Program-made: the position numbers and the translations under genes
Notes under the pieces: generated by a model
Told to the model about the DNA's origin: nothing
What the model saw: only the letters and a program-made list of their open reading frames with translations
Databases searched by the model: none
In this document: piece by piece, positions 1 through 10,057 of the stretch
Numbering within the stretch: the first letter of the stretch is position 1
How the letters are laid out: each line of letters begins with the position of its first letter
From: a virus
Lineage: Duplodnaviria > Heunggongvirae > Uroviricota > Caudoviricetes
Reading direction: 5' to 3' (one strand)
Virus record (IMG/VR): IMGVR_UViG_2734482778_000005
Coordinates: 1 to 10,057 of that record
DNA: 10,057 bases

Positions 1-105
1 CCAGAAAATGTTGTCCGGCGTGCGCCACTGATCGCCCACTTCCTTCAGTTCATGGGCTGGTTTGTTCCGCAGTTCCACCAGCGCCTGGCAATATTTATTA
101 CTCAT
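1..105 (-). CDS. N-terminal 35 codons of a gene that continues beyond the window start; possible phage Dam-type DNA N6-adenine methyltransferase
   Basis: Minus-strand ATG at 105-103 overlaps the TAA stop of the upstream gene (TAATG). Reads MSNKYCQALVELRNKPAHELKEVGDQWRTPDNIFW with no stop to the window edge. Codon usage is host-like (CTG, GCG, CCG). The D-x-W-R-T-P motif near the N-terminus resembles phage Dam-family methyltransferases; this is recalled, not searched. Confidence 0.4.
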   Translation of the reverse strand, partial: MSNKYCQALVELRNKPAHELKEVGDQWRTPDNIFW

Positions 106-599
106 TAAGCCCCCACGTAATTCCCTGACAGATACCACTCATCACCCGATACAGCGCGCTTGCTGCTTTTCCGTAAACACTGCTCACGACGCGCCAGAAA
201 ATTGTTTCGTTCTGGCTGGGAGTGGCTTTCACGGAATGCCGCCATCCACACCGTTGCAGCACGACGGTATAAGCCCCTGGACTCCAGTTCTTCCGCCTGG
301 CGGGTCAGGCACAAAATCACCCGGGGATCGTTAGTGCCGACATAGAAATTGCGCACAGGTCTGGTTTCACGAACTGGTTGTGGTTCCGGCTCCTGCGCTC
401 TCTCAGTCAGGCGTGGGAAATGTCTGCGTGTATCTCCTTCACAACGGTGAGCCACACGCCCACTCTGACGTAACTTGCTTGCTGACTGCAGAACGCGCTG
501 CCGTGAGTAACCTGCAAAAGCATCCGCAATGTCTCCGGAAGTACACCCCGGATGGGCTTCAATGAATTTCTGAACGTCATTTAACAGACTCATGATCAC
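105..599 (-). CDS. Hypothetical prophage protein, 164 aa, with a C-terminal PerC-like motif (LESRGLYRRAATVW); possibly YfdN-like
   Basis: Complete ORF on the minus strand. Its ATG at 599-597 overlaps the stop of the O-like gene (ATGA). The C-terminal half carries a motif recalled from the PerC/Pch regulator family. The length equals what I recall for K-12 YfdN, but that is not verified. Confidence 0.65.
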   Translation of the reverse strand: MIMSLLNDVQKFIEAHPGCTSGDIADAFAGYSRQRVLQSASKLRQSGRVAHRCEGDTRRHFPRLTERAQEPEPQPVRETRPVRNFYVGTNDPRVILCLTRQAEELESRGLYRRAATVWMAAFRESHSQPERNNFLARREQCLRKSSKRAVSGDEWYLSGNYVGA

Positions 600-1588
600 C
601 CCCTGAATCCTGCCGGGATCTGGCTGTAGTCCACGTTGTCGTAACTGGCTTTGAAGTACGGGTCTTCACGTTTTTCTGTGTGCGTGCTGACGGACGGCGA
701 TAAGCGCAGGGAAAGCTCATCCCATTTTTCCCGCAACTTCGACGGGCTGAGCACGTTACGGCACCAGAACGGATCGCGGCTGACGCGGCTGTACATCTCG
801 CAGATTTGTTTGTGAGTACGACCATCCTGCACACACATCAGGCGAATTTCGTTTGCCCATGCTGTCCAGTTCGGTTCTTTGGGACGAACCACCTCGCCGT
901 CACATTCGGCGGCCTGCTCGTACAGGGCGATGATTTTTTTCCAGAGCCACTGTGCGCAGGTCAAATCATCCTGCGTTCCCCACTGGCGCTTTTTAGGGCT
1001 GAATACAACCGCATCAGGATGGCGAGTTAAAAACTCCTGTTCAGCCGTTTGCGTGTCCGGTTGCGAAGCGTCCGGACGAGAAGAGGTTTTATTCTCTGTA
1101 GTAATCTCTGTTGTATTCTCTGTAAGATCATTGGGCCATTTTGACCCGATGACAGCGTGTCGTTTTGAACCAATGGATCGTGTCATTTTGCGCCCATCCA
1201 TCAGGTCACTTTGACCCGATGGAGAAGTGCATTTTGACCCGATGGATTCGTTCACTTTGACCTCTTCTAAAAGCTCACTTTCATAGTTGATCGTGTAGAA
1301 GTTGGTCATGTCACGCTTCGATTTATTGAGTTGCTCGCGACGCAAAACCCCAAGTGATTTCAGGCTTGCAAATGTGCGTTTCAGAGTGGACTCTGACCAG
1401 AACGGAAACTGCTCCAGCCACTGTTCTGTCGTGTTATAAACCCAGCGAATTCCGCCATGCTCAGTGCCTGAATTCGTTTCATTCAGCCAGTAATGAAGCT
1501 GCTGCAACACAATTGCCTCATTCAGACCAATACGGCATGCAAGATCACGATTTATCACAATGGGCTGGGATGTCATTAACAGGCTCAT
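596..1588 (-). CDS. Lambdoid replication initiator (O-like), 330 aa, with the replication origin embedded in its coding sequence
   Basis: ATG at 1588 is preceded by GAGGT with a 5-nt spacer. The direct repeats at 1139-1264 fall in the middle of the ORF and encode the repeated SIGSK peptide, as iterons do in lambda O. Downstream gene is coupled by an ATGA overlap. Confidence 0.85.
   Translation of the reverse strand: MSLLMTSQPIVINRDLACRIGLNEAIVLQQLHYWLNETNSGTEHGGIRWVYNTTEQWLEQFPFWSESTLKRTFASLKSLGVLRREQLNKSKRDMTNFYTINYESELLEEVKVNESIGSKCTSPSGQSDLMDGRKMTRSIGSKRHAVIGSKWPNDLTENTTEITTENKTSSRPDASQPDTQTAEQEFLTRHPDAVVFSPKKRQWGTQDDLTCAQWLWKKIIALYEQAAECDGEVVRPKEPNWTAWANEIRLMCVQDGRTHKQICEMYSRVSRDPFWCRNVLSPSKLREKWDELSLRLSPSVSTHTEKREDPYFKASYDNVDYSQIPAGFRG
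1081..1264. repeat. Putative phage origin: six direct iterons at about 23-bp spacing (core TTTTGACCCGATGGA, starting near 1139, 1163, 1186, 1209, 1232, 1255) next to an AT-rich tract (1081-1138) carrying short TTCTCTGT repeats
   Basis: Direct reading of the sequence: four near-identical and two degenerate copies of the TTTTGACC core, phased at 23-24 bp, abutting an AT-rich stretch. This is the classic iteron plus AT-rich lambdoid ori-within-O layout. Confidence 0.65.
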
Positions 1589-1757
1589 GACCGACCTCTA
1601 TTTCCCTGAATTTACGACGAAACTGTTCGAGCGGACTGAAGCATTCATGTTCATAGCCTTCACGGAGGTAGATAACCCGTTGTGTTTCCGGCTCCCAACG
1701 AATGACTCTGACGGGCACTCCGTAGTGATCTTTGAACCAGCGGTTAACTTGTCGCAA
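1545..1757 (-). CDS. Alternative small ORF (70 aa, TTG start); mutually exclusive with most of 1598-1936
   Basis: TTG start is preceded by AAGGAGA with a 7-nt spacer. The product ([40 protein letters not shown]...) has a globular-looking composition. It overlaps the O-like start by 44 nt and overlaps the 112-aa ORF in another frame. Confidence 0.3.
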
Positions 1758-1936
1758 AGGACTGTCTCCTTCTGCCGGTTGAAATCACCCACAGCCCACT
1801 CTGCAAAGCTGTGGGTTACAATTTCCCTGTCACCTGGTACATTCACTGCATAGCAATACTCCACCTTCGCTTTTCCACCCGGTACAGGAAGCGCAATCAG
1901 TTGCGAGCGACGGTAGTGTGTTGTTAAACTGTTCAT
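1598..1936 (-). CDS. Hypothetical protein, 112 aa, between the CII-like and O-like genes
   Basis: ATG at 1936 overlaps the stop of the upstream CII-like gene (ATGA). GGAGA lies 9 nt upstream. The TAG stop at 1600-1598 sits 9 nt before the O-like ATG, inside its ribosome-binding site, which is typical operon spacing. The C-terminal half is S/T/N-rich and less protein-like. Confidence 0.45.
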
Positions 1937-2517
1937 GCGTTAGTTTCTCCACAACCAGAAGCAATCGACGCCACGACGCCCGGAGCTGCACACTCGCGGG
2001 CGTTACTCTTTTCCGGCGCACAAAAAACACGAAATAACAGTGTTAAATGCTCCTGCCACTTCGCCATTACTTGGTAGCTGTTCTCTTCGATTTGCTCACG
2101 CTCAGCCTGGTCAATAACTCCATCAGCAGTTGCCTTGCGTAAGTACTGGGAATGCTTGCCAATCCATTCTATTGACTCCATCAGCCGCTGATTAATGTCA
2201 CCATTGTCAATGTCATCAATGACCACCAGCGGCACAAACACCCCATTACTACGACGGGCTATTGCATCTGTTACATGCCTGGTACCACTGGCATCCTGTA
2301 AAACCATGGCCCACTCAAGTGGAAAAATTTGATCCCCACCGCTACGCAGTCTGTTATGCAATTGATCTTTTGCTGGGGTGATATCATCAGATTTATACAA
2401 ACCAAGAATTTCTGCTGCTTCCTCATAGCCATGAGGTAAATCAGCAATCGTTCTTCGTATTGCTGCCACCAGCCATGCTGGTTGTTTATCAACTTTCCAT
2501 TCAGGTTCTTTACCCAC
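1933..2517 (-). CDS. Phage CII-like regulatory protein (CP76/YdaT-type), 194 aa, GTG start
   Basis: GTG at 2517-2515 is preceded by GAGGA with a 7-nt spacer. It sits immediately downstream of the Cro-like gene (27-nt gap), in the cII position. The central region ([10 protein letters not shown]...[25 protein letters not shown]) resembles CII/CP76-type regulators from memory. Confidence 0.7.
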
Positions 2518-2544
2518 GGTTAATTCCTCATTTCTGTGGTGTTT

Positions 2545-2742
2545 TTATGCCGCAGCACTGTTAGTCTTTTGATATAAAGACACGTCAACTTTCAGTTTCC
2601 CGTTAGTAATTTTTTCTAACTGGTACGCTCGGCCTTCAGGAATAATCTCAGGCCACTCTGAAACAGACGGATGCTTAATACCTAGGGCTTCGGCGGTTTT
2701 ACAAACTCCGCCGAAATAATTAATCACGTCGGATTTCCGCAT
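2545..2742 (-). CDS. Cro-like small HTH regulator (YdaS/Cro family), 65 aa
   Basis: ATG at 2742 is preceded by GGGAGA with a 5-nt spacer. It is the first gene leftward of the operator cluster and divergent from the cI-like gene. The HTH-like segment is GGVCKTAEALGIKHPSVSEW. Confidence 0.8.
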   Translation of the reverse strand: MRKSDVINYFGGVCKTAEALGIKHPSVSEWPEIIPEGRAYQLEKITNGKLKVDVSLYQKTNSAAA

Positions 2743-2773
2743 TTCTGTCTCCCGTTAAATTACGTTAAGCAGA

Positions 2774-2840
2774 AATGTAGGATATCCAACATGCCAATGT
2801 CAAGAATCCTACATGGGCATGTGGTAGGATTGCCTACATG
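2774..2840. promoter_or_regulatory. OR-like operator region: three 18-bp imperfect palindromes (2775-2792, 2797-2814, 2822-2839) overlapping a leftward PR-like promoter (-35 TTGACA at 2803-2798, -10 TACATT at 2779-2774, minus strand) and the cI start
   Basis: Direct reading. The sites are ATGTAGGATATCCAACAT, ATGTCAAGAATCCTACAT and TGGTAGGATTGCCTACAT, sharing the half-site ATGT(A/T)GGAT. The promoter is TTGACA, 18-nt spacer, TACATT, aimed at the cro-like gene. Confidence 0.6.
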
Positions 2841-3491
2841 ATGAACATGAGTGATCGTATTCGCCAAAGGCGAAAAGAACTGAACCTGACACAACAAGCA
2901 CTGGCTGATTTGACTGGTGTGAACCGTGTCACGGTTACTGGATGGGAAAAGGACGACTACCAACCAAATGGAGCCAACCTTCAAGCCCTAGCCAACGCAC
3001 TTAAATGCGATCCTCTGTGGCTTGTTAGCGGAAAAGGCTCGCCTGAACCAAAGATAAATCTAAAACCTGAAATATTCGCAGTTAAAAAAGTCCCCCTCAT
3101 CTCGTGGGTTCAGGCGGGTTCATGGACAATGACGGAGCCTGGTGTCAGGAAAGAAGATGCTGAAGAGTGGGTTTATACTACCGCCCTTGTATCAGAAATG
3201 GCATTTGCACTACGGGTCCGTGGTGATTCAATGACCAATCCCCTCGGCTCACCATCGATACCAGAAGGTTCTATCGTTATCGTAGAGCCAGATATTATTG
3301 ATACAGAGTGTATTAACGGAAAAATCGTTGTTGCCCATATCAATGGTGGGCAAGAAGCGACACTCAAAAAATTTGTTGAGGACTGGCCGAACAGGTATCT
3401 CGTCCCACTAAATCCTAACTATAAAACTATTGAATGCGGTGAGAACTGCAGAATAGTTGGTCTTGTCAAACAAGTAATAATGGATTTTTGA
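2838..3491 (+). CDS. cI: cI-like prophage repressor: N-terminal XRE-type HTH plus C-terminal S24 (LexA-like) autopeptidase domain, 217 aa
   Basis: HTH segment LTQQALADLTGVNRVTVTGWE. A candidate Ala-Gly cleavage site (VQAGSW). The catalytic Ser sits in the GDSM context and a Lys in ATLKKF. The start overlaps the third operator; alternative ATGs lie at 2841 and 2847. Confidence 0.9.
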   Translation: MMNMSDRIRQRRKELNLTQQALADLTGVNRVTVTGWEKDDYQPNGANLQALANALKCDPLWLVSGKGSPEPKINLKPEIFAVKKVPLISWVQAGSWTMTEPGVRKEDAEEWVYTTALVSEMAFALRVRGDSMTNPLGSPSIPEGSIVIVEPDIIDTECINGKIVVAHINGGQEATLKKFVEDWPNRYLVPLNPNYKTIECGENCRIVGLVKQVIMDF

Positions 3492-3511
3492 CACATCTTC
3501 CTCACTATCGC

Positions 3512-3537
3512 AAAACCGGGGTATCCCCGGTTTTTTT
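3512..3537 (+). terminator. Rho-independent terminator after cI (stem AAAACCGGGG / CCCCGGTTTT, 3-nt loop, T7 tail)
   Basis: Perfect 10-bp GC-rich inverted repeat followed by TTTTTTT, 21 nt after the cI stop. The A-tract upstream makes it potentially bidirectional. Confidence 0.7.
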
Positions 3538-3553
3538 ATGAGCCTATCTTTTT

Positions 3554-3607
3554 ATGTAGGATAACCAACATAAACTCTTGACACTCACATGTTGGATATC
3601 CTACATT
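3554..3607 (+). promoter_or_regulatory. OL/PL-like region: two 18-bp operators (3554-3571, 3589-3606) bracketing a rightward promoter (-35 TTGACA at 3578-3583, -10 TACATT at 3602-3607)
   Basis: The operators ATGTAGGATAACCAACAT and ATGTTGGATATCCTACAT share the OR half-site. The promoter has the same TTGACA, 18-nt spacer, TACATT geometry as PR. Confidence 0.6.
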
Positions 3608-3765
3608 TGTTTTTAGAGTTGTGGTGAATGCGCAGGCTGATGCGCGAAAGACATTGCAGCTATTGCGGAAAAGAGCTGTTCGGCGGGGCAATTAAACGCC
3701 CGTGAGAGTCTGAAATAACCGCAAGCCGGAGATCAGCACCGGTCACCACAACAGCCACTGCTTTG

Positions 3766-3813
3766 GCGGTACCAGTTTGTACACTTGCTTCCGGCTGGTA
3801 CCGCTCTTTTTAC
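3766..3813 (+). other. Strong hairpin in the PL leader (10-bp perfect stem GCGGTACCAG / CTGGTACCGC, 19-nt loop, then TCTTTTT); possible attenuator or terminator
   Basis: Perfect inverted repeat read directly, followed by a T-rich run, about 135 nt upstream of the first early-left gene. Function is not established. Confidence 0.3.
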
Positions 3814-3948
3814 AAAACAGAGAAGAGCATCACCGGACGACGGGCTCATAACCCAATCCATCCGGGCGGCTGCCACCGCAGGTGTTCTTCTCTGTTTTGT
3901 GGAGAAACTAACCGACCTTGCAGGGTCGATATGATGAGGAGCAGCAAA

Positions 3949-4311
3949 ATGGCTAGCGAACGCAGTACTGATGTGCAGGCATTTATTGGGGAGCTGGACG
4001 GCGGCGTATTTGAAACCAAAATCGGCGCAGTTCTCAGTGAAGTCGCTTCCGGTGTGATGAACACGAAAACCAAAGGTAAGGTCTCGCTCAACCTGGAAAT
4101 CGAACCGTTTGATGAGAATCGTGTGAAAATCAAACACAAACTCTCGTATGTTCGCCCGACTAACCGCGGGAAAATTTCCGAAGAAGACACCACCGAAACG
4201 CCGATGTATGTCAATCGCGGTGGTCGCCTGACTATTCTGCAGGAAGACCAGGGACAATTACTGACTCTTGCTGGTGAACCTGACGGAAAACTCCGCGCAG
4301 CAGGTCATTAA
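3949..4311 (+). CDS. yfdP: YfdP-like prophage protein, 120 aa
   Basis: ATG at 3949 is preceded by GAGGAG with a 7-nt spacer. The ORF-track start at 3763 is a TTG with an implausible N-terminal extension. Length and position directly upstream of the YfdQ/YfdR-like genes match the CPS-53 yfdP-yfdQ-yfdR order as I recall it. Confidence 0.65.
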   Translation: MASERSTDVQAFIGELDGGVFETKIGAVLSEVASGVMNTKTKGKVSLNLEIEPFDENRVKIKHKLSYVRPTNRGKISEEDTTETPMYVNRGGRLTILQEDQGQLLTLAGEPDGKLRAAGH

Positions 4312-4376
4312 TATCGTTCTTAATTAACTGATTATTTATCTCATCACTGAATATCTTTATATAGTGAGGACTTATT

Positions 4377-5201
4377 ATGTCTCAGAACTTAGACGCAACC
4401 GCAATTAATCAAATCCATGCCCTTATTTCTGCTCAGGGTGTTAATGAAATTATCAGTAAGATTGGTGCCGATGCTGTGGCATTGCCTGAGAATTTCCGCA
4501 TTCATGATCTGGAAAAATTTAATTTAAATCGCTTCCGTTTCCGTGGTGCGCTTTCCACTGCCAGCATCGATGACTTTACCCGTTATTCTAAAGATCTTGC
4601 AGATGAAGGCACCCGCTGCTTTATCGATGCTGATAATATGCGTGCCGTCAGTGTGCTTAACCTGGGTACTATTGATGAACCAGGTCACGCAGATAACACC
4701 GCCACTCTCAAACTGAAAAAGACAGCACCGTTCTCTGCTCTGTTGTCTGTTAATGGCGAGCGTAACTCCCAGAAATCACTGGCAGAATGGATTGAAGACT
4801 GGGCCGACTACCTTGTGGGCTTTGATACTAATGGTGACACCATTCAGGCAACAAAAGCGGCTGCGGCGGTCCGTAAAATCACGATTGAAGCAAACCAGAC
4901 CGCTGATTTTGAGGATAATGACTTCAGCGGCAAACGCTCCCTGATGGAGTCTGTCGAAGCGAAGACCAAAGACATTATGCCAGTGGCATTTGAATTTAAA
5001 TGCGTTCCGTTTGAAGGCCTTAAAGAACGTCCGTTTAAATTACGCCTCAGCATTATCACTGGCGATCGTCCTGTACTGGTTCTGCGCATTATTCAGCTGG
5101 AAGCGGTGCAGGAAGAAATGGCTAACGAATTTCGTGATCTGCTTGTTGAGAAATTCAAAGACAGCAAAGTAGAAACCTTTATTGGTACTTTCACCGCCTG
5201 A
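4377..5201 (+). CDS. yfdQ: YfdQ-like protein (DUF2303 family), 274 aa
   Basis: ATG is preceded by GAGGA with a 6-nt spacer. It is a long clean ORF with host-like codon usage. The sequence and length match my recollection of CPS-53 YfdQ. Confidence 0.8.
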
Positions 5202-5213
5202 TTTCATTACTGC

Positions 5214-5235
5214 AAATGCCCCTGCGGGGGCATTT
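5214..5235 (+). terminator. Terminator-like hairpin after yfdQ (AAATGCCCC, loop TGCG, GGGGCATTT) with a weak U-tail
   Basis: Perfect 9-bp inverted repeat 13 nt after the yfdQ stop. Only three T residues follow, so it is probably a partial terminator or an RNA-stability element. Confidence 0.3.
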
Positions 5236-5329
5236 ATGGAAACGTAATTAACTCAATAATCGCCGGATGGTGAGGGCTTCCTTTTACCCGAATTCAGCGC
5301 GGTGCAGCGCATATAACGTGGAGAACAAA

Positions 5330-5866
5330 ATGTCATTTATTAAAACTTTTTCCGGGAAGCATTTTTATTATGACAGGATAAATAAAGACAACATCGATAT
5401 TAACGATATCGCGGTTTCCCTTTCAAATATCTGTCGCTTTGCCGGTCATCTTTCACACTTCTACAGCGTCGCCCAACATGCGGTGCTTTGCAGCCAGCTG
5501 GTGCCGCAGGAATTTGCTTTTGAAGCGTTAATGCATGATGCAACAGAAGCGTATTGCCAGGACATCCCCGCGCCACTGAAACGCCTTCTTCCTGACTATA
5601 AACGGATGGAAGAAAAAATAGACGCCGTAATCCGTGAGAAATACGGGTTACCCCCGGTTATGAGTACGCCCGTGAAATATGCCGATCTCATCATGCTGGC
5701 AACCGAACGCCGTGATCTCGGGCTTGATGATGGCTCTTTCTGGCCTGTACTGGAAGGCATCCCGGCAACAGAGATGTTCAACGTGATTCCACTGGCACCG
5801 GGCCATGCCTACGGGATGTTTATGGAACGCTTCAACGAGTTATCGGAATTACGCAAATGTGCATAA
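5330..5866 (+). CDS. yfdR: YfdR-like HD-domain phosphohydrolase (5'-deoxynucleotidase-type), 178 aa
   Basis: ATG at 5330 is preceded by GGAG. HD motif (ALMHDATEA) and upstream His residues are present. Length and sequence match my recollection of K-12 YfdR. The ORF-track start at 5267 is an upstream in-frame extension. Confidence 0.8.
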   Translation: MSFIKTFSGKHFYYDRINKDNIDINDIAVSLSNICRFAGHLSHFYSVAQHAVLCSQLVPQEFAFEALMHDATEAYCQDIPAPLKRLLPDYKRMEEKIDAVIREKYGLPPVMSTPVKYADLIMLATERRDLGLDDGSFWPVLEGIPATEMFNVIPLAPGHAYGMFMERFNELSELRKCA

Positions 5867-6735
5867 CTCATGTAGTTAGTTTTTCTGGCGGGAGAACATC
5901 TGCATATCTTGTTCACCTGATGGAAGAACAAAGAAAGGCTGGCAATAACGTCTGCTACATCTTTATGGATACCGGTTGCGAACATCCGCTGACATACCGC
6001 TTTATTCGGGAGGTTGTGAAGTTCTGGGGCATACCGCTAACTGTGTTGCAGGTCGATATAAATCCAGAGCTTGGGCAGCCAAATGGTTATACGGAATGGG
6101 AACCAAAGGATATTCAGACACGAATGCCGGTGCTTAAACCGTTTATGGACATGGTAAAAAAATATGGCACGCCATACATCGGCGGCGCATTCTGCACTGA
6201 CAGATTAAAACTCACCCCCTTCACAAAATACTGCGATGACCATTTCGGACGAGGGAATTACATCACATGGCTGGGTATTCGTGCAGACGAACCTCGTAGG
6301 CTGAAACCGAAATCGGGCGTCCGGTATCTTGCCGAGCTATCTGATTTTGATAAGTCGGATGTTATCCGGTGGTGGCATAAACAACCTTTTGATTTGCAAA
6401 TCCCGGAGCACCTCGGGAACTGTGTTTTCTGCATCAAAAAGTCCACGCAAAAGCTGGGGCTTGCATGTAAAGACGAACCTGGTCTGATGCGAGTTTTTAA
6501 TGAGCTGGTTACAGGTAAACACGTCCGGGATGGTCACCGAAAGACAAATAAAGACGTTATGTACCGTGGTCATCTGAGCCTTGACGGGATTGCCAGAATG
6601 TATGCCGACAGCGACTACAGAAATTTGTATCAGGCGATGGTGCAAGCCAGGCGATTCGATACCGGCTCGTGTTCAGGGTCATGTGAAATCTGGGGTGATC
6701 AATTGGAGTTGAAATTCGAAGAGGTGGTGGCATGA
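5857..6735 (+). CDS. PAPS-reductase-like PP-loop ATP-pyrophosphatase family protein, 292 aa
   Basis: N-terminal PP-loop SFSGGRTS (SGGxxS type). The start overlaps the yfdR stop by 10 nt and the stop overlaps the next start (ATGA). It is a long ORF with several Cys residues near the C-terminus. Confidence 0.8.
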   Translation: MCITHVVSFSGGRTSAYLVHLMEEQRKAGNNVCYIFMDTGCEHPLTYRFIREVVKFWGIPLTVLQVDINPELGQPNGYTEWEPKDIQTRMPVLKPFMDMVKKYGTPYIGGAFCTDRLKLTPFTKYCDDHFGRGNYITWLGIRADEPRRLKPKSGVRYLAELSDFDKSDVIRWWHKQPFDLQIPEHLGNCVFCIKKSTQKLGLACKDEPGLMRVFNELVTGKHVRDGHRKTNKDVMYRGHLSLDGIARMYADSDYRNLYQAMVQARRFDTGSCSGSCEIWGDQLELKFEEVVA

Positions 6736-7205
6736 CAACCAAAATTAACTATCAGGCACTGCGTGAGGCGGCAGAAGCAATAAAAATAGTAGCCACACCA
6801 CAAAAATTGCTGGCATTTCGTATGAAAGTCACACCGCAGGTTGTGCTGGCGCTGCTGGATGAGCTGGAAGCAGCAGAGAAGCGAAACGCTGAATTACAAA
6901 GCGAGAATGCATACATCCGCAACCGGTACAAAGAACTGGACCTATTAATCGGGAAAAACATTCTGGTCATGCAGGCTGCCATTATCGAATGGCAGGCAAC
7001 TGGCGACGCTAAGAGCGGACTGGCATGGATTTATAACACACTGTTTGGCCCTGGCGAATTACCGGACGAATCTGAGAAAGATGCTCAGGCCTACTTTAAT
7101 CGCAAATATGCACCGATTGACGAAAAGCTTATGGCGCTTCACAAGTGGTTTTGGGAACAAAGTGAAGCCGAGCGCGCCGCTGGCATTCGCATCAAAGGAG
7201 AGTGA
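6732..7205 (+). CDS. Ea22-like (ead/Ea22 family) phage early protein, 157 aa
   Basis: ATGA overlap with the upstream gene; GAGGTG ribosome-binding site. The N-terminal YQALREAAEA and coiled-coil-like central region resemble Ea22-family prophage proteins from memory. Confidence 0.6.
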   Translation: MTTKINYQALREAAEAIKIVATPQKLLAFRMKVTPQVVLALLDELEAAEKRNAELQSENAYIRNRYKELDLLIGKNILVMQAAIIEWQATGDAKSGLAWIYNTLFGPGELPDESEKDAQAYFNRKYAPIDEKLMALHKWFWEQSEAERAAGIRIKGE

Positions 7206-7206
7206 T

Positions 7207-7470
7207 ATGGCAACTTTGACAAAAAAGGAACAGGCATGGTTGAGCGAATTACAGAACGTTCTTGATCGCTGCCCGTCACCGAAAAAAATTGGTTTTTACA
7301 CCATTGGCGATAAAAACATTTACCTGTATGACCTACGCCGCATGGATGAAATCATGGAGGCTCTTGATAATCGTTCGTCAATGGATTGGTGTGTTGCTGT
7401 CCATGATATGAATGCCGGATTTGAAGAAAAGATTTTGTTCCCCTCGTCAGTTGAAAGCACAGCGGGTTAA
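7207..7470 (+). CDS. Hypothetical phage protein, 87 aa
   Basis: ATG at 7207 is preceded by AGGAG with an 8-nt spacer and starts 1 nt after the upstream TGA. The ORF-track start at 7045 is an in-frame extension overlapping the upstream gene. Confidence 0.6.
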   Translation: MATLTKKEQAWLSELQNVLDRCPSPKKIGFYTIGDKNIYLYDLRRMDEIMEALDNRSSMDWCVAVHDMNAGFEEKILFPSSVESTAG

Positions 7471-7480
7471 GGACTAACAC

Positions 7481-7945
7481 ATGACAACGTTCACCGACAA
7501 AGAACTGATTAAAGAAATCAAAGAGCGCATAGGCAGCCTGCCAGAATTAATCGAAGGCATGGAAGTTTCCATTGATGTAAGCACTTGTGATGCTGATTTA
7601 GGTAATCGCTATTTCGGCACCGTCACCGAGGCGTTAGAACTTGATACAGCCAAGAATGGTTACATCCTCCTGGTTCAGGACGCAGAGCCAAACTTCGATG
7701 TAAATGGCAACTCTCCGGGAACTCCGGATAGTTGGATAAGCTGTAGTGATCGAATGCCTGAAAAGGGCCAGAACGTGCTTATTTCGGTGAATTTCGATAG
7801 CTCTCTGGTTGAACCGCTAATATGCTCCGCACGCTATACCGGAAGCACCTTTCGGCGCGGAGATGCAACGATTAAGCCGGGTAATGGTATTGAGCAAGCA
7901 ACTCACTGGATGCCGCTACCGGAACCGCCGCAGGAGGTGAAGTGA
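7481..7945 (+). CDS. DUF551-family phage protein, 154 aa
   Basis: AAGGA with a 7-nt spacer. The C-terminal segment (WISCSDRMPEKGQNVLI ... HWMPLPEPP) matches the DUF551 pattern as I recall it. Confidence 0.7.
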   Translation: MTTFTDKELIKEIKERIGSLPELIEGMEVSIDVSTCDADLGNRYFGTVTEALELDTAKNGYILLVQDAEPNFDVNGNSPGTPDSWISCSDRMPEKGQNVLISVNFDSSLVEPLICSARYTGSTFRRGDATIKPGNGIEQATHWMPLPEPPQEVK

Positions 7946-8517
7946 TGAACAACTTAATGATCGACCTTGAGACGATGGGGAAAAATAAGGATGCACCGAT
8001 CGTTTCCATTGGCGCGGTGTTCTTCACTCCAGAAACCGGAGACATCGGACAAGAATTCTATACGGTTGTTAGCCTGGAAAGTGCTATGGGGCAAGGAGCT
8101 ACACCTGACGGCGATACCATCCTGTGGTGGTTGAAACAAAGCCCTGAAGCACGAGCTGCAATCTGTATTGATGATACTTTGTCGATCAGCGATGCTCTCT
8201 CAGAACTAAATCATTTCATTAACCGGCACGCAGCCAATACGAAATATTTAAAAGTCTGGGGTAACGGGGCCACCTTCGACAACGTAATTTTACGTGGAGC
8301 TTATGAGCGAGCAGGACAAATCTGCCCGTGGGCATACTGGAATGACCACGATGTACGCACGATCGTTACGCTTGGGCGTTCCATCGGATTCGACCCCAAA
8401 ATGGACATCCCTTTCGATGGCGAACGGCACAACGCCCTAGCCGATGCCCGTCATCAGGCAAAATATGTTTCCGCTATCTGGCAGAAATTAATTCCTGCCA
8501 CCAGCACAGAATTATGA
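7945..8517 (+). CDS. DEDD-type (DnaQ-like) 3'-5' exonuclease, 190 aa
   Basis: Exo I motif IDLETMG, Exo II region WGNGATFDNVIL and Exo III HNALADARH are in the expected order. ATG at 7945 has AGGAGG with a 7-nt spacer; the GTG at 7942 in the ORF track is too close to that site. It overlaps the upstream stop (TGATG). Confidence 0.8.
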   Translation: MNNLMIDLETMGKNKDAPIVSIGAVFFTPETGDIGQEFYTVVSLESAMGQGATPDGDTILWWLKQSPEARAAICIDDTLSISDALSELNHFINRHAANTKYLKVWGNGATFDNVILRGAYERAGQICPWAYWNDHDVRTIVTLGRSIGFDPKMDIPFDGERHNALADARHQAKYVSAIWQKLIPATSTEL

Positions 8518-8553
8518 TTTTCCCGGGTGCAGCCGGTTTTGATGGAGAAAATT

Positions 8554-8826
8554 ATGAATACCTTGTTTTTACTGATGGCTGAATTCAATACCCCTAACAT
8601 TGAACTCTCAGCAGTTAGCCAAAAGTACTTTGGCATGAGTCCAGCCACGGCAGAAGCAAAAGCAAACGCTTGTAAGTTGCCCGTTCCAACATATCGCATC
8701 GGCACATCACAAAAAGCAAAACGTTGCATCAATATTCAGGATCTTGCGGAATACATAGACAAAAGGCGAGAAGAAGGGCGTGCTGAGTGGGAAAGGGTCA
8801 GAACCCATAAACAAAGGCTCATTTAA
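8554..8826 (+). CDS. PrtN-family / excisionase-like small DNA-binding protein, 90 aa
   Basis: ATG at 8554 is preceded by GGAGA. The product (MNTLFLLMAEFNTPNIELSAVSQKYFGMSPATAEAKANACKLPVPTYR...) resembles PrtN/Xis-like proteins from memory. It is the last gene of the rightward operon. Confidence 0.6.
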   Translation: MNTLFLLMAEFNTPNIELSAVSQKYFGMSPATAEAKANACKLPVPTYRIGTSQKAKRCINIQDLAEYIDKRREEGRAEWERVRTHKQRLI

Positions 8827-8834
8827 ATAGAATA

Positions 8835-8866
8835 TGAATAAACCCATCCAAAGATGGGTTTATTCA
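8835..8866. terminator. Perfect 14-bp inverted repeat (TGAATAAACCCATC, loop CAAA, GATGGGTTTATTCA) between convergent genes; candidate bidirectional terminator
   Basis: Read directly. The right arm contains the stop codon of the minus-strand gene. A T-rich run follows on the minus-strand transcript, so it probably works better for the leftward cassette. Confidence 0.5.
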
Positions 8867-9321
8867 TAATGTTGAAGAGCAGCGAGTATCAGTTTTTTAT
8901 GCCGTTTAACCATAGTTTTAGATATCTCAACTGCACATCGAACTTGTCTCATACAATGATCTGTAATGCGACCTTTTAGCACGTCACCATATTGGATGGC
9001 TATTTTCTCTTTAATAATTTCAAGATCGAAAGCAGCATGAGCCTCAATGCAATTAACAAATGAGTCCCATTTAAGAAAATCATGGTCCTCTCTATTAATT
9101 TCGACCTGACAAGCCATAAGATCATTGTTTCTCTTAATAAATTCATTTATATCTGAATTTATTAGAAGAACTAAAAGAGGTTCACAGCAAACAACCACCA
9201 TATATTTTACTTTAGGTGGGGTCGTAAAATCACAATGAAGATACAATACATCACCGGGTGATATACCTCTTTCACGACTAAAATTAGCCTTAAAATCAGG
9301 AGGGAAACAATCACCCAGCAT
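8860..9321 (-). CDS. Hypothetical protein, 153 aa, no family recognised; candidate toxin or effector partner of the upstream Panacea-domain gene
   Basis: ATG at 9321-9319 lies 5 nt after the TGA of the Panacea-domain gene. The ORF track extends to a TTG at 9330, which would give an ATGA-type overlap. AT-rich codon usage differs from the rest of the window. No known motif identified by eye. Confidence 0.65.
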   Translation of the reverse strand: MLGDCFPPDFKANFSRERGISPGDVLYLHCDFTTPPKVKYMVVVCCEPLLVLLINSDINEFIKRNNDLMACQVEINREDHDFLKWDSFVNCIEAHAAFDLEIIKEKIAIQYGDVLKGRITDHCMRQVRCAVEISKTMVKRHKKLILAALQHYE

Positions 9322-9326
9322 AAGTA

Positions 9327-9908
9327 TCAATATCCGTTCTTCAGATAATCCAGTATTAATTTGCTATTTTTTAGCTGTGCAACTATCGATTCCAAAGACA
9401 TCTCACCATTGTGATCTGCCTGTTCCCATGCCGCGTCATGGCTCATGGTTCTGATAGCTTCAAAGGACATGTTTCCAAGCATCGCGATAGACTTATCAAT
9501 ACACTCTAAATCTGAGTCACTAAAAAAGTCTTCATCAGCTTCACGGCTCGGCACAATCGTCATACCTGATACAGAAAATGCTTTTCGCACAGAATCGACA
9601 TCACAACCATTAGGAATGTAACGTCCATCTCCACGAGCAATTTTTATAATATCGTATGTGTTGCTTGCTACAGGCCCATCCTTCATAGCGTTATAGTGAT
9701 CGCCCGTTATGAGGCGTCCAAAACTTTCAAGGTGAAACCTGTCAGCATAATAAAGAATTTTTCCGACATGATAGATATCTGGGATCGGTGCTTTAGAGGC
9801 GACGTACAGAATGGCCTCTAAAGCCTTTTCTGAATCAAACCTTACATTTAGCATCAATACACCCTTCATCCAAACAACATCGTCAAGCTCTGGCAAATGC
9901 AACCGCAT
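9327..9908 (-). CDS. Panacea (DUF4065) domain protein, SocA/GepA-like, 193 aa (possibly 175 aa from an internal ATG at 9854)
   Basis: N-terminal region (EAILYVASKAP-IPDIYHVGKILYYADRFHLESFGRLITGDHYNAMKDGPV) matches the Panacea/COG3600 signature (KLxKLLYYA ... GPV). The C-terminal part (LSDSDLECIDKSIAMLGNMSFEAIRTMSHDAAWEQA) matches the second conserved block. No ribosome-binding site precedes the ATG at 9908; AAGGG precedes the ATG at 9854. Confidence 0.7.
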   Translation of the reverse strand: MRLHLPELDDVVWMKGVLMLNVRFDSEKALEAILYVASKAPIPDIYHVGKILYYADRFHLESFGRLITGDHYNAMKDGPVASNTYDIIKIARGDGRYIPNGCDVDSVRKAFSVSGMTIVPSREADEDFFSDSDLECIDKSIAMLGNMSFEAIRTMSHDAAWEQADHNGEMSLESIVAQLKNSKLILDYLKNGY

Positions 9909-9920
9909 CCGCCTTCTACA

Positions 9921-9950
9921 ATCTTAAAGTCTTCACCTACGCTAGGTCAA
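9921..9950 (-). promoter_or_regulatory. Candidate sigma70 promoter for the leftward two-gene cassette (-35 TTGACC at 9950-9945, 18-nt spacer, -10 TAAGAT at 9926-9921)
   Basis: Hexamers read on the minus strand upstream of the Panacea-domain gene. The -10 matches the consensus at 4 of 6 positions. Weak call. Confidence 0.25.
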
Positions 9951-10057
9951 TTGAAGTGATGAGCAAATGATGCTTTCTAAGAAGAACAGGTTCCCAATAG
10001 GCTCCCACAAAGTGTATAACTACTTGTTTTTCAAAAACGGTACATCCTATCGAGCAT

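Follow-up and report, generated by a model that had tools for sequence, protein, structure and literature searches.

In phage lambda, the first region transcribed after PL is occupied by N and nutL. The early leaders of the N-less lambdoid phage HK022, putL and putR, are themselves structured RNAs. A put RNA measures ~70 nt and consists of two stem-loops with essential unpaired bases (PMC9378689), and a put-like mechanism was suggested in a 2025 study for phage LLS, in which an N homologue is absent (PMC12315714). Here we analyse a leader that lies in the same position, between a PL-like promoter and yfdP, in the virus record IMGVR_UViG_2734482778_000005 (Caudoviricetes; positions 1 to 10,057, hereafter the window, 10,057 nt in full). 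The leader, ~3615-3948 (~335 nt), is a non-coding, modular and conserved RNA, with neither a hidden N gene nor a leader peptide. Its largest and best conserved structure is a three-way-junction RNA at 3807-3905, which was overlooked in the original prediction made from this sequence. This element shares its position with nutL/N and putL, yet belongs to neither.

From 5' to 3' the leader is made up of a multi-hairpin 5' domain, a hairpin with a U tract, a scaffold helix that carries the junction, a hairpin with a UUGCAG loop and the yfdP ribosome-binding site. The corresponding features are as follows.

3618-3752, plus strand: leader domain 1, from minimum free energy folds, with conserved end blocks and a variable middle.
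3765-3811, plus strand: terminator-like hairpin (arms 3766-3775 and 3795-3804) and U tract (UCUUUUU, 3805-3811), of the tR' type with a large loop.
3807-3905, plus strand: three-way-junction RNA, with P1 at 3812-3831/3881-3900, P2 at 3833-3865 and P3 at 3866-3879.
3842-3854, plus strand: P2 apex GGG-CUCAUAA-CCC, with CAU at 3847-3849, a copy of the initiator tRNA anticodon stem-loop.
3913-3928, plus strand: small hairpin CGACC-UUGCAG-GGUCG, from folds, between the junction and the yfdP ribosome-binding site.
3936-3951, plus strand: yfdP Shine-Dalgarno sequence (GAGGAG, 3936-3941) and start codon (ATG, 3949-3951), the end of the leader, from the RefSeq annotation of identical sequence.

P1 of the junction is formed by ACAAAACAGAGAAGAGCAUC (3812-3831) paired with GGUGUUCUUCUCUGUUUUGU (3881-3900). 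It starts directly after the U tract of the hairpin and can be extended to 3807/3905, giving 20-25 bp. The junction has a folding free energy (dG) of -51.2 kcal/mol (z = -8.1), and the whole leader folds at -140.9 kcal/mol (z = -6.1 against shuffled sequence). Among 22 non-redundant sequences of the same class, 96.2% of cells were paired, a value reached by none of 500 shuffles, and slid-register controls gave 41-55% paired; double-sided changes were found at nine junction pairs, in 41 cells. When all classes are compared, the lower stem of P2 takes seven forms (CCGGA/UCCGG, CCGGG/CCCGG, CCAGG/CCUGG, CCUGAU/AUCAGG, CUGUCU/GGGCAG, CAGGGC/GGCCUG and CUCCAAUC/GAUUGGAG) which are always complementary, with 95.8% of cells paired and no equal among 500 shuffles. 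P3, which ranges from 12 to ~40 nt among variants, also covaries. The G-U pairs of the junction are compatible with the plus sense only, and a covariance model of the element, R1, scored 111.9 bits on the plus strand against 38.4 bits on the minus strand. Structure prediction, one of the checks named in the original prediction, thus gave a leader that folds well beyond chance and whose helices covary among homologues. When the window and three related loci were searched against Rfam 15, no family was returned at gathering thresholds, only weak and irrelevant matches appeared at E values up to 10, and no small-RNA family matched the leader. The element was likewise undescribed in the literature consulted, including that on yfdP, on SfV/ST64B antitermination and on prophage small RNAs (AgvB, AsxR, Pas), and under the motif sequence itself. 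The junction is a structured phage leader RNA of a previously undescribed family.

At the centre of the element lies a near-invariant core of ~22 nt, CGACGGGCUCAUAAYCCAAUCC (3838-3859). The P2 apex within it was invariant in 37 aligned sequences (alignments A1 and A2), apart from ST64B and a G-U variant of class B. Its anticodon-like arm is identical at 16 of 17 bases to that of E. coli metY (CGTCGGGCTCATAACCC in metY, CGACGGGCTCATAACCC in the element), and the match takes in the three G-C pairs as well as the CUCAUAA loop. The element thus shares the anticodon arm of the initiator tRNAs (metY/metZWV), and its copies in Klebsiella phages stand in a tRNA array and are followed by A/G-CCA. In contrast to initiator tRNA and to viral tRNA-like structures, most versions of the element sit inside an mRNA leader. 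The element is not a tRNA.

IMG/VR, GTDB genomes and metagenomes were scanned with a pattern and phage records with BLAST, and well over 100 copies were recovered. Of 5426 complete E. coli genomes, 2488 (~46%) contain the element, in up to five copies each; it has no Rfam entry, has never been annotated as RNA and is recorded either as nothing or as a hypothetical protein. In N-less lambdoid phages it crowns the long helix of the early-left leader; the hosts of these phages are Escherichia, Shigella, Salmonella (ST64B), Citrobacter (phiNP) and many other Enterobacterales, and carriers of the element include Shigella serotype-converting phages and N-less Stx2 phages of O157:H7. The first downstream gene in the early-left leaders varies between yfdP-like, yfdR-like, RdgC-like and Xis-like genes, and over all contexts holins also occur in this place. 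A single match was obtained in each of the whole SfV genome, the Pantoea PA-1 genome and the window, and the late leader of SfV contained neither a copy of the element nor a related helix.

Other copies stand in late leaders. In Pantoea PA-1, which additionally has an annotated N-like gene, the late leader runs between a Q-like gene (PHROG 753) and a holin gene, and there a canonical terminator precedes the element, which is carried on the same long helix as in early-left leaders. Klebsiella and Raoultella phages have it in their late leaders directly 3' of tRNA-Asn, tRNA-Arg or tRNA-Phe, with a P1 of 5-6 bp. A conserved AGAUAAU spacer separates the tRNA gene from the element at these loci (L004 3003-3078, L005, L023, L025, L046, L055, L059, L067, L084, L129 and L178), where P1 reads GGCCUG/CAGGCC. 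Other variants with a short P1 read GGCCC/GGGCC or GGACUC/GAGUCC, some of them after a terminator; the element follows a canonical terminator in L193, L225 and L229. A P1 of 5-6 bp is found in class B and in L192, L193 and L200, and one of 5-10 bp in other classes. Outside the Enterobacterales, matches to an 18-mer of the element in genomes of other phyla were mostly chance occurrences inside genes, and only those in L161 and L179 were meaningful. L161 is an Acidobacteria prophage in which the element, here without P3, adjoins a glucosaminidase (Pfam PF01832), which is probably an endolysin, and a Dam methylase. In L179 (3650-3745), from the metagenome-assembled genome of a gammaproteobacterium, we also observed a truncated tRNA-fMet, which keeps its 5' part as far as the anticodon arm and continues directly into an acceptor 3' end; this is probably an integration-site remnant unrelated to the element. 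The junction core is thus an autonomous module, found in several leader types and gene contexts.

Among known systems, the late leader of lambda is one of the closest to the window leader. It has the same module order, in which a large-loop terminator with a U tract is followed by a long helix (CACAACAGG...CCGUUGUG) and then by a domain that is closed by GUUGUGSUG/CASCACAAC and encloses a CCGG hairpin. The lambda sequence reads GGGAUUUUUUAUAUCUG-CACAACAGGUAAGAGCA...UGCUCUUUCCGUUGUG-CUGAAU, followed by the CCGG hairpin and CAGCACAAC. Model R1 matched lambda 44779-44874 at 20.5 bits with aligning flanks, and L059, L176, L186 and PA-1 bridge the window leader and the lambda late leader by alignment. 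On this sequence comparison, the part of the lambda late leader just past tR' is homologous to the long helix and the sequence around it. The lambda helix differs in its apical insert and lacks the initiator-tRNA-like arm; indeed, in lambda, L059, L176 and L186 the homologous helix bears unrelated apical inserts, and therefore the helix is a scaffold on which the tRNA-like junction is an autonomous insert. The lambda late leader is transcribed from PR' under Q, whereas the modules of the window lie behind a repressor-controlled PL-like promoter. This promoter stands in the place of a first copy of the helix, and the transcript starts inside the module that follows. In the lambda record, the part of the late leader downstream of tR' (44779-44950) is not annotated as RNA structure, and the modules it shares with the window leader have no described function. 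As side observations on lambda, the long helix at 44786-44865 (L218 987-1066) has a dG of -33 (z = -3.5), and the domain at 44857-44941 (L218 1058-1142), closed by GUUGUGCUG/CAGCACAAC, has a z of -3.8. The two share GUUGUG and are thus partly mutually exclusive, and neither appears to have been annotated or described.

The counterpart of this lambda domain in the window is domain 1, in which GUUGUGGUG (3618-3626) pairs with CACCACAAC (3744-3752) in a long-range closing helix that the original prediction had also overlooked. In lambda the same helix is formed by the pairing of GUUGUGCUG with CAGCACAAC, and a compensatory change supports it there. Domain 1 further contains two conserved hairpins, GCGCA-GGCUGA-UGCGC at 3630-3645 and CCGG-AGAUCAGCA-CCGG at 3726-3742. 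Its end blocks are kept in L059, L134, L176 and L186 while the middle varies: GTTGTGGTGAATGCGCAGGCTGATGCGC (3618-3645, the first 28 nt) and GCAAGCCGGAGATCAGCACCGGYCACCACAAC (3721-3752, 32 nt) survive in these distant leaders, and the two surviving blocks are RNA elements. Mosaic breakpoints against other phages coincide with module borders: for the mEp460 type at 3615, where transcription is predicted to start, for the cdtI and Stx2c type at 3744, on the 3' strand of the helix that closes domain 1, and for the SfV type at 3764, at the hairpin base. The early-left leader is built from lambda late-leader modules, and therefore such leaders are mosaic evolutionary units in their own right.

The original prediction had drawn attention to a perfect 10-bp hairpin with a T-rich tail, and this was found exactly as described (3766-3804, followed by TCTTTTT). 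Its stem contains 10 perfect pairs, or 13 when wobbles are counted, around a loop of ~13-19 nt, with a dG of -21.2 kcal/mol (z = -4.3); none of 200 shuffles was as stable. In ~32 of 36 non-redundant related leaders a hairpin of -17 to -33 kcal/mol ends at a run of four to seven T residues, and in several of them the loop is large or branched, as in lambda tR'. The position is constant, directly 5' of the junction helix, while the stems vary (GGCGGTACCAG, GGCGGCGTC, GGCGGCATC, GGGCGGTAAC, CTGGCGG, GGCGGTTATCC, TGCCCA), with at least six different covarying versions. The covariation check proposed in the original prediction came out in favour of the hairpin. Two marks of an intrinsic terminator are present, namely a GC-rich stem with a U tract directly behind it on the transcribed strand, and conservation of both, with covarying stems, in homologous leaders. 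The hairpin is thus a conserved feature that has intrinsic-terminator anatomy, and it is a probable terminator of the tR' type. Two other assignments of the same sequence were considered and rejected. The string GGCGGTAC at the hairpin base resembles the ops site GGCGGTAG of RfaH, but only GGCGG is conserved, as the paired base of the stem. CGCTCTT (3801-3807), in the 3' arm, resembles boxA, but relatives carry GACCTTTTT, CGCCCTTTTT or GCATTTTTTT in its place.

Termination at this hairpin would give a short RNA of ~195 nt, similar to lambda 6S RNA and to StxS of Stx phages (PMC7547250). Those RNAs arise from the constitutive PR', in contrast to the window leader, which lies behind a repressed PL-like promoter.

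Taking these results together, we tentatively favour a composite reading, in which the leader would combine a terminator checkpoint, a stability or processing helix and an initiator-tRNA-mimic junction that is bound by a conserved partner. The hairpin would stop part or most of the PL transcripts, as a checkpoint resembling tR'. Transcripts that read through would carry the long helix, a two-turn duplex beside a U-rich single strand, which would probably protect the downstream mRNA or be processed from it. The junction would then act as an RNA via its invariant loop, most likely by mimicking the anticodon arm of initiator tRNA, so that it would be bound by a conserved host factor whose normal target is this arm. 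The hallmark of the initiator tRNA, three G-C pairs and a CAU loop, is kept from Enterobacterales to the Acidobacteria prophage, which points to a universal partner.

Several observations weigh against this composite reading. The hairpin was missed by a consensus terminator scan, its loop of more than 8 nt being outside the range of the scan, and its U tract contains just five consecutive U residues; conversely, a strong terminator at this point would leave the passage of RNA polymerase unexplained in an N-less phage. The likeness to tRNA is confined to the anticodon arm, with neither a D arm nor a T loop, and the P2 stem beneath the three G-C pairs is mismatched by conserved bases. The loop of ST64B reads CUCAUUA. 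ARAGORN called no tRNA gene in the window, and in L004 and L005 it recognised the adjoining tRNAs but not the element, as did the Rfam tRNA model. The A/G-CCA found 3' of P1 in all 14 distinct copies of the Klebsiella type (class B) is absent from the window and from the other classes, and it was dropped as a general tRNA-like trait for this restriction to the Klebsiella class.

A more specific version, in which the junction is a phage-made initiator-tRNA mimic that serves either as a decoy against tRNA-fMet-cleaving toxins or as a captor of initiation factors, we regard as doubtful. The anticodon loop of initiator tRNA is the cleavage site of VapC-type toxins, which occur in Shigella, Salmonella and many other bacteria. 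The mimic would be produced in bulk, since it rides in leaders of those early and late operons that are transcribed most strongly. In the role of decoy or pseudo-substrate, it would shield translation initiation from host nucleases that cut the initiator-tRNA anticodon loop; as a captor, it would bind a component of the initiation machinery, either the 30S P site with initiation factor IF3 or methionyl-tRNA synthetase. Such a mimic, directed against defence toxins that cleave tRNA or at translation initiation, would if true give temperate phages an RNA-based device for anti-defence or takeover that is so far undescribed for them.

Pairing of the CAU loop, in a pseudoknot or by kissing the start codon, was tried and rejected, as loop complements within 350 nt were no commoner than in shuffles. 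In a clade of the sb37 type, seven bases of the CAU loop (GCUCAUA) could pair with the start context of the first gene, CUAUGAGC, to which they are complementary, at ~110-133 nt past the core (L008, L030, L098, L146, L153, L159 and L180). UAUGAGC at the start codon is limited to this clade and is not above chance family-wide. A hammerhead was also dropped, as CUGAUGA is missing from the window and in the Klebsiella class is simply part of the covarying stem of P2.

How the early-left operons of N-less phages are read is a question raised by specialists, for which the element is an obvious candidate. The first alternative to the composite reading is that of a put-like cis antiterminator, in which the nascent junction would bind its own RNA polymerase, which would then resist pausing as well as intrinsic and Rho-dependent terminators further downstream, in place of N. 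The element stands in the leaders of long operons regardless of the first gene, it occurs in SfV, mEp460 and Stx2a_WGPS2, which are N-less by annotation, and it has, as put does, a length of ~70 nt and two stem-loops with invariant unpaired bases (PMC9378689). Phage LLS, for which a put-like RNA has been suggested (PMC12315714), itself bears the three-way junction (match H110). The conservation of the core in Acidobacteria does not discriminate here, because RNA polymerase would be an equally universal partner. However, there is no similarity to putL or putR: model R1 was silent in the HK022 immunity region, and blastn-short with putL and putR gave only chance matches of 7-8 nt (E > 0.3). In contrast to put, which has no closing helix, the element has one. 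HK022 carries one put copy after PL and one after PR, while SfV and PA-1 each have a single copy of the element and none is found in the PR operon. The element, unlike put, also occurs in Q-controlled late leaders and beside tRNA genes. In the window it lies 3' rather than 5' of the nearest terminator, and no strong intrinsic terminator was found on the plus strand in the 6 kb downstream. Moreover, late leaders that bear it belong to phages with Q, and Pantoea PA-1 has it alongside an N-like gene. Thus while the suggestion in the original prediction of an RNA-based control holds in so far as the leader is an RNA-level feature, with a conserved hairpin whose stems covary, membership of the put family does not, given the absence of sequence or model similarity, the single copy and the position 3' of the nearest terminator. 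A put-like function of the junction is possible, but on this balance we consider it unlikely.

It also seems rather unlikely that the leader serves processing or stability only, with the helix as an RNase III substrate or as a 5' protective stem after an RNase E cut in the U-rich linker, and the junction as a passenger without a ligand. P1, a near-perfect duplex of 20-25 bp, is long enough for a putative RNase III site (about two turns) and comes immediately after the single-stranded linker CUUUUUAC, and the differing apical inserts on the helices of lambda, L059, L176 and L186 agree with a conserved scaffold. Against this, the ~22-nt near-invariant core is retained where P1 is just 5-6 bp (class B, L192, L193 and L200) and in Acidobacteria, and a passenger would not retain invariant unpaired bases together with a covarying P2.

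A riboswitch-like sensor, or an operator for a phage or host RNA-binding protein that governs the first gene, is improbable. A three-way junction with conserved unpaired nucleotides and a conserved small hairpin before the ribosome-binding site would suit such a role. However, at -51 kcal/mol the P1 of this class is far too stable for switching, and a search for conserved pairing of the junction with either the terminator or the ribosome-binding site found none. The first gene, whose identity varies, begins anywhere from 10 to >200 nt away, and complements of the loop are not enriched nearby. The small hairpin keeps its UUGCAG or UGGCAG loop in relatives on other stems (GGCGG/CCGCC, GCCC/GGGC and GCGCC/GGCGC). 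The same loop reappears as the P3 loop in L104, L087, L107 and L128, and a second recurring P3 loop reads (C/A)UUCCUAAC; these recurrent loops may be protein-binding sites.

The absence of an N-like gene, as originally predicted, was borne out. The list of open reading frames (ORFs) contains no independent ORF of at least 60 codons in the leader, a 182-aa ORF with a TTG start at 3763-4311 being merely the yfdP frame extended upstream. The profile search proposed in the original prediction, made with Pfam and PHROGs on the leader ORFs, YfdP, YfdQ and SfV orf33 (at the N position), gave nothing N-like, and no N is annotated in the early-left operons of the relatives SfV, mEp460 and Stx2a_WGPS2. 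In contrast to lambda N/nut, the N protein is absent here, the boxA-like string is unconserved and no boxB-type pentaloop hairpin follows it. The hairpin at 3630-3645 differs from boxB in its 6-nt GGCUGA loop and has no boxA upstream.

The original prediction had further proposed a short ORF in the leader as a micropeptide or as part of an attenuation mechanism.

3628-3705, plus strand: 25-codon ORF encoding MRRLMRERHCSYCGKELFGGAIKRP, overlapping domain 1 and judged non-coding.

This ORF is located where it had been predicted, with a poor ribosome-binding site. It begins 13 nt past the predicted transcription start and stops 60 nt before the hairpin. Among all fetched loci it was present only in copies that are 98-100% identical, in which six of six substitutions are non-synonymous and one abolishes the start codon, and in the distant leaders L059, L134, L176 and L186 the frame ends after six codons and the middle sequence is replaced. 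Pfam gave only sub-threshold zinc-ribbon matches, and no PHROG matched. As the frame is not conserved, both the micropeptide and the leader-peptide attenuation readings fall. Thus a Cys-containing micropeptide, or control of the hairpin by translation of the ORF, is very improbable: the proximity of the ORF to the predicted start and the weak zinc-ribbon matches are set against a frame that stops after six codons in relatives that retain the flanking RNA blocks, a poor ribosome-binding site, a hairpin 60 nt beyond the end of the ORF and no alternative antiterminator pairing found. The small ORF is therefore to be dropped, the hairpin is kept as a probable terminator and the junction at 3807-3905 becomes the focus.

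A second ORF, of 49 aa at 3785-3934 (plus strand), overlies the element and matches phrog_33599, and mEp460 gp36 (L001 3119-3262, minus strand) also overlies it; several phage records place hypothetical proteins over the element, which are probably spurious ORF calls, and PHROG 33599 most likely collects such mis-called ORFs. Element lengths of 105, 106, 107, 108, 124, 128, 131 and 132 nt differ by non-multiples of three and, together with the compensatory changes, therefore exclude the 49-aa ORF as a gene. That the element is a small protein gene (this ORF or mEp460 gp36), or a decayed tRNA pseudogene whose anticodon arm could descend from a phage tRNA-Met gene, with no function as RNA, is a most improbable alternative in view of the compensatory changes in all three helices, this variation in length and a core that is unchanged across orders and phyla.

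The window is a lambdoid prophage immunity region, and the leader is bounded upstream by the following features.

2838-3491, plus strand: cI-like repressor of the LexA/S24 type.
3512-3537, plus strand: intrinsic terminator of the cI-like repressor transcript, AAAACCGGGG-TAT-CCCCGGTTTT and then a T run, read from the sequence.
3554-3607, plus strand: PL-like promoter (-35 at 3578-3583, -10 at 3602-3607) and two operator palindromes (3554-3571 and 3589-3606).

The SfV annotation carries an equivalent of the terminator at 3512-3537, which is predicted to insulate the leader from repressor transcription. The promoter (TTGACA-18-TACATT, 3578-3607) is sigma-70-like, with 10 of 12 matches in the promoter scan, and is the PL equivalent, transcribing yfdP, yfdQ (DUF2303), yfdR and further early-left genes. 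A divergent PR-like promoter at 2803-2774 (minus strand) has identical hexamers and the same 18-bp operator palindrome. These palindromes, ATGTTGGATATCCTACAT and ATGTAGGATAACCAACAT, overlap both divergent promoters (3554-3571 and 3589-3606, and 2774-2830 on the minus side). The predicted transcription start is at ~3615, and homology to phages of other immunity types starts exactly there (BLAST query position 76). At the beginning of the predicted transcript (~+1 to +6), TAGAGT (3614-3619) resembles a -10 hexamer and retains A2 and T6, which by analogy with lambda PR' and putL could cause sigma-dependent promoter-proximal pausing.

At the other end of the leader, GAGGAG is located 7 nt 5' of the yfdP start at 3949, and two in-frame ATGs (3931-3936), 18 and 15 nt 5' of the annotated start, have no good Shine-Dalgarno sequence. 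PHROG 204 spans residues 1-119 of YfdP. Identical DNA is found in E. coli chromosomes and Stx2c phages, where the interval between the repressor gene and yfdP bears no annotation. In E. coli K-12 CPS-53, yfdP and its Shine-Dalgarno sequence are kept, while the promoter, the leader and the element were lost by deletion (L130 3230-3620); upstream of yfdP in CPS-53 there is a run of GACGGGTCAGATTTT-like repeats adjoining yfdO. Data from K-12 are therefore uninformative on this leader. Some leaders of the family approach 900 nt, and in Pseudescherichia vulneris (L176 1640-2100) the repressor gene and the first leader helix are separated by ~460 nt that are GC-rich and contain no convincing ORF. 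The Stx2a-converting O157:H7 phage Stx2a_WGPS2 (L233 4556-5335) shares both the N-less early-left layout and the leader, on which its early-left control, including that of xis and int, presumably depends.

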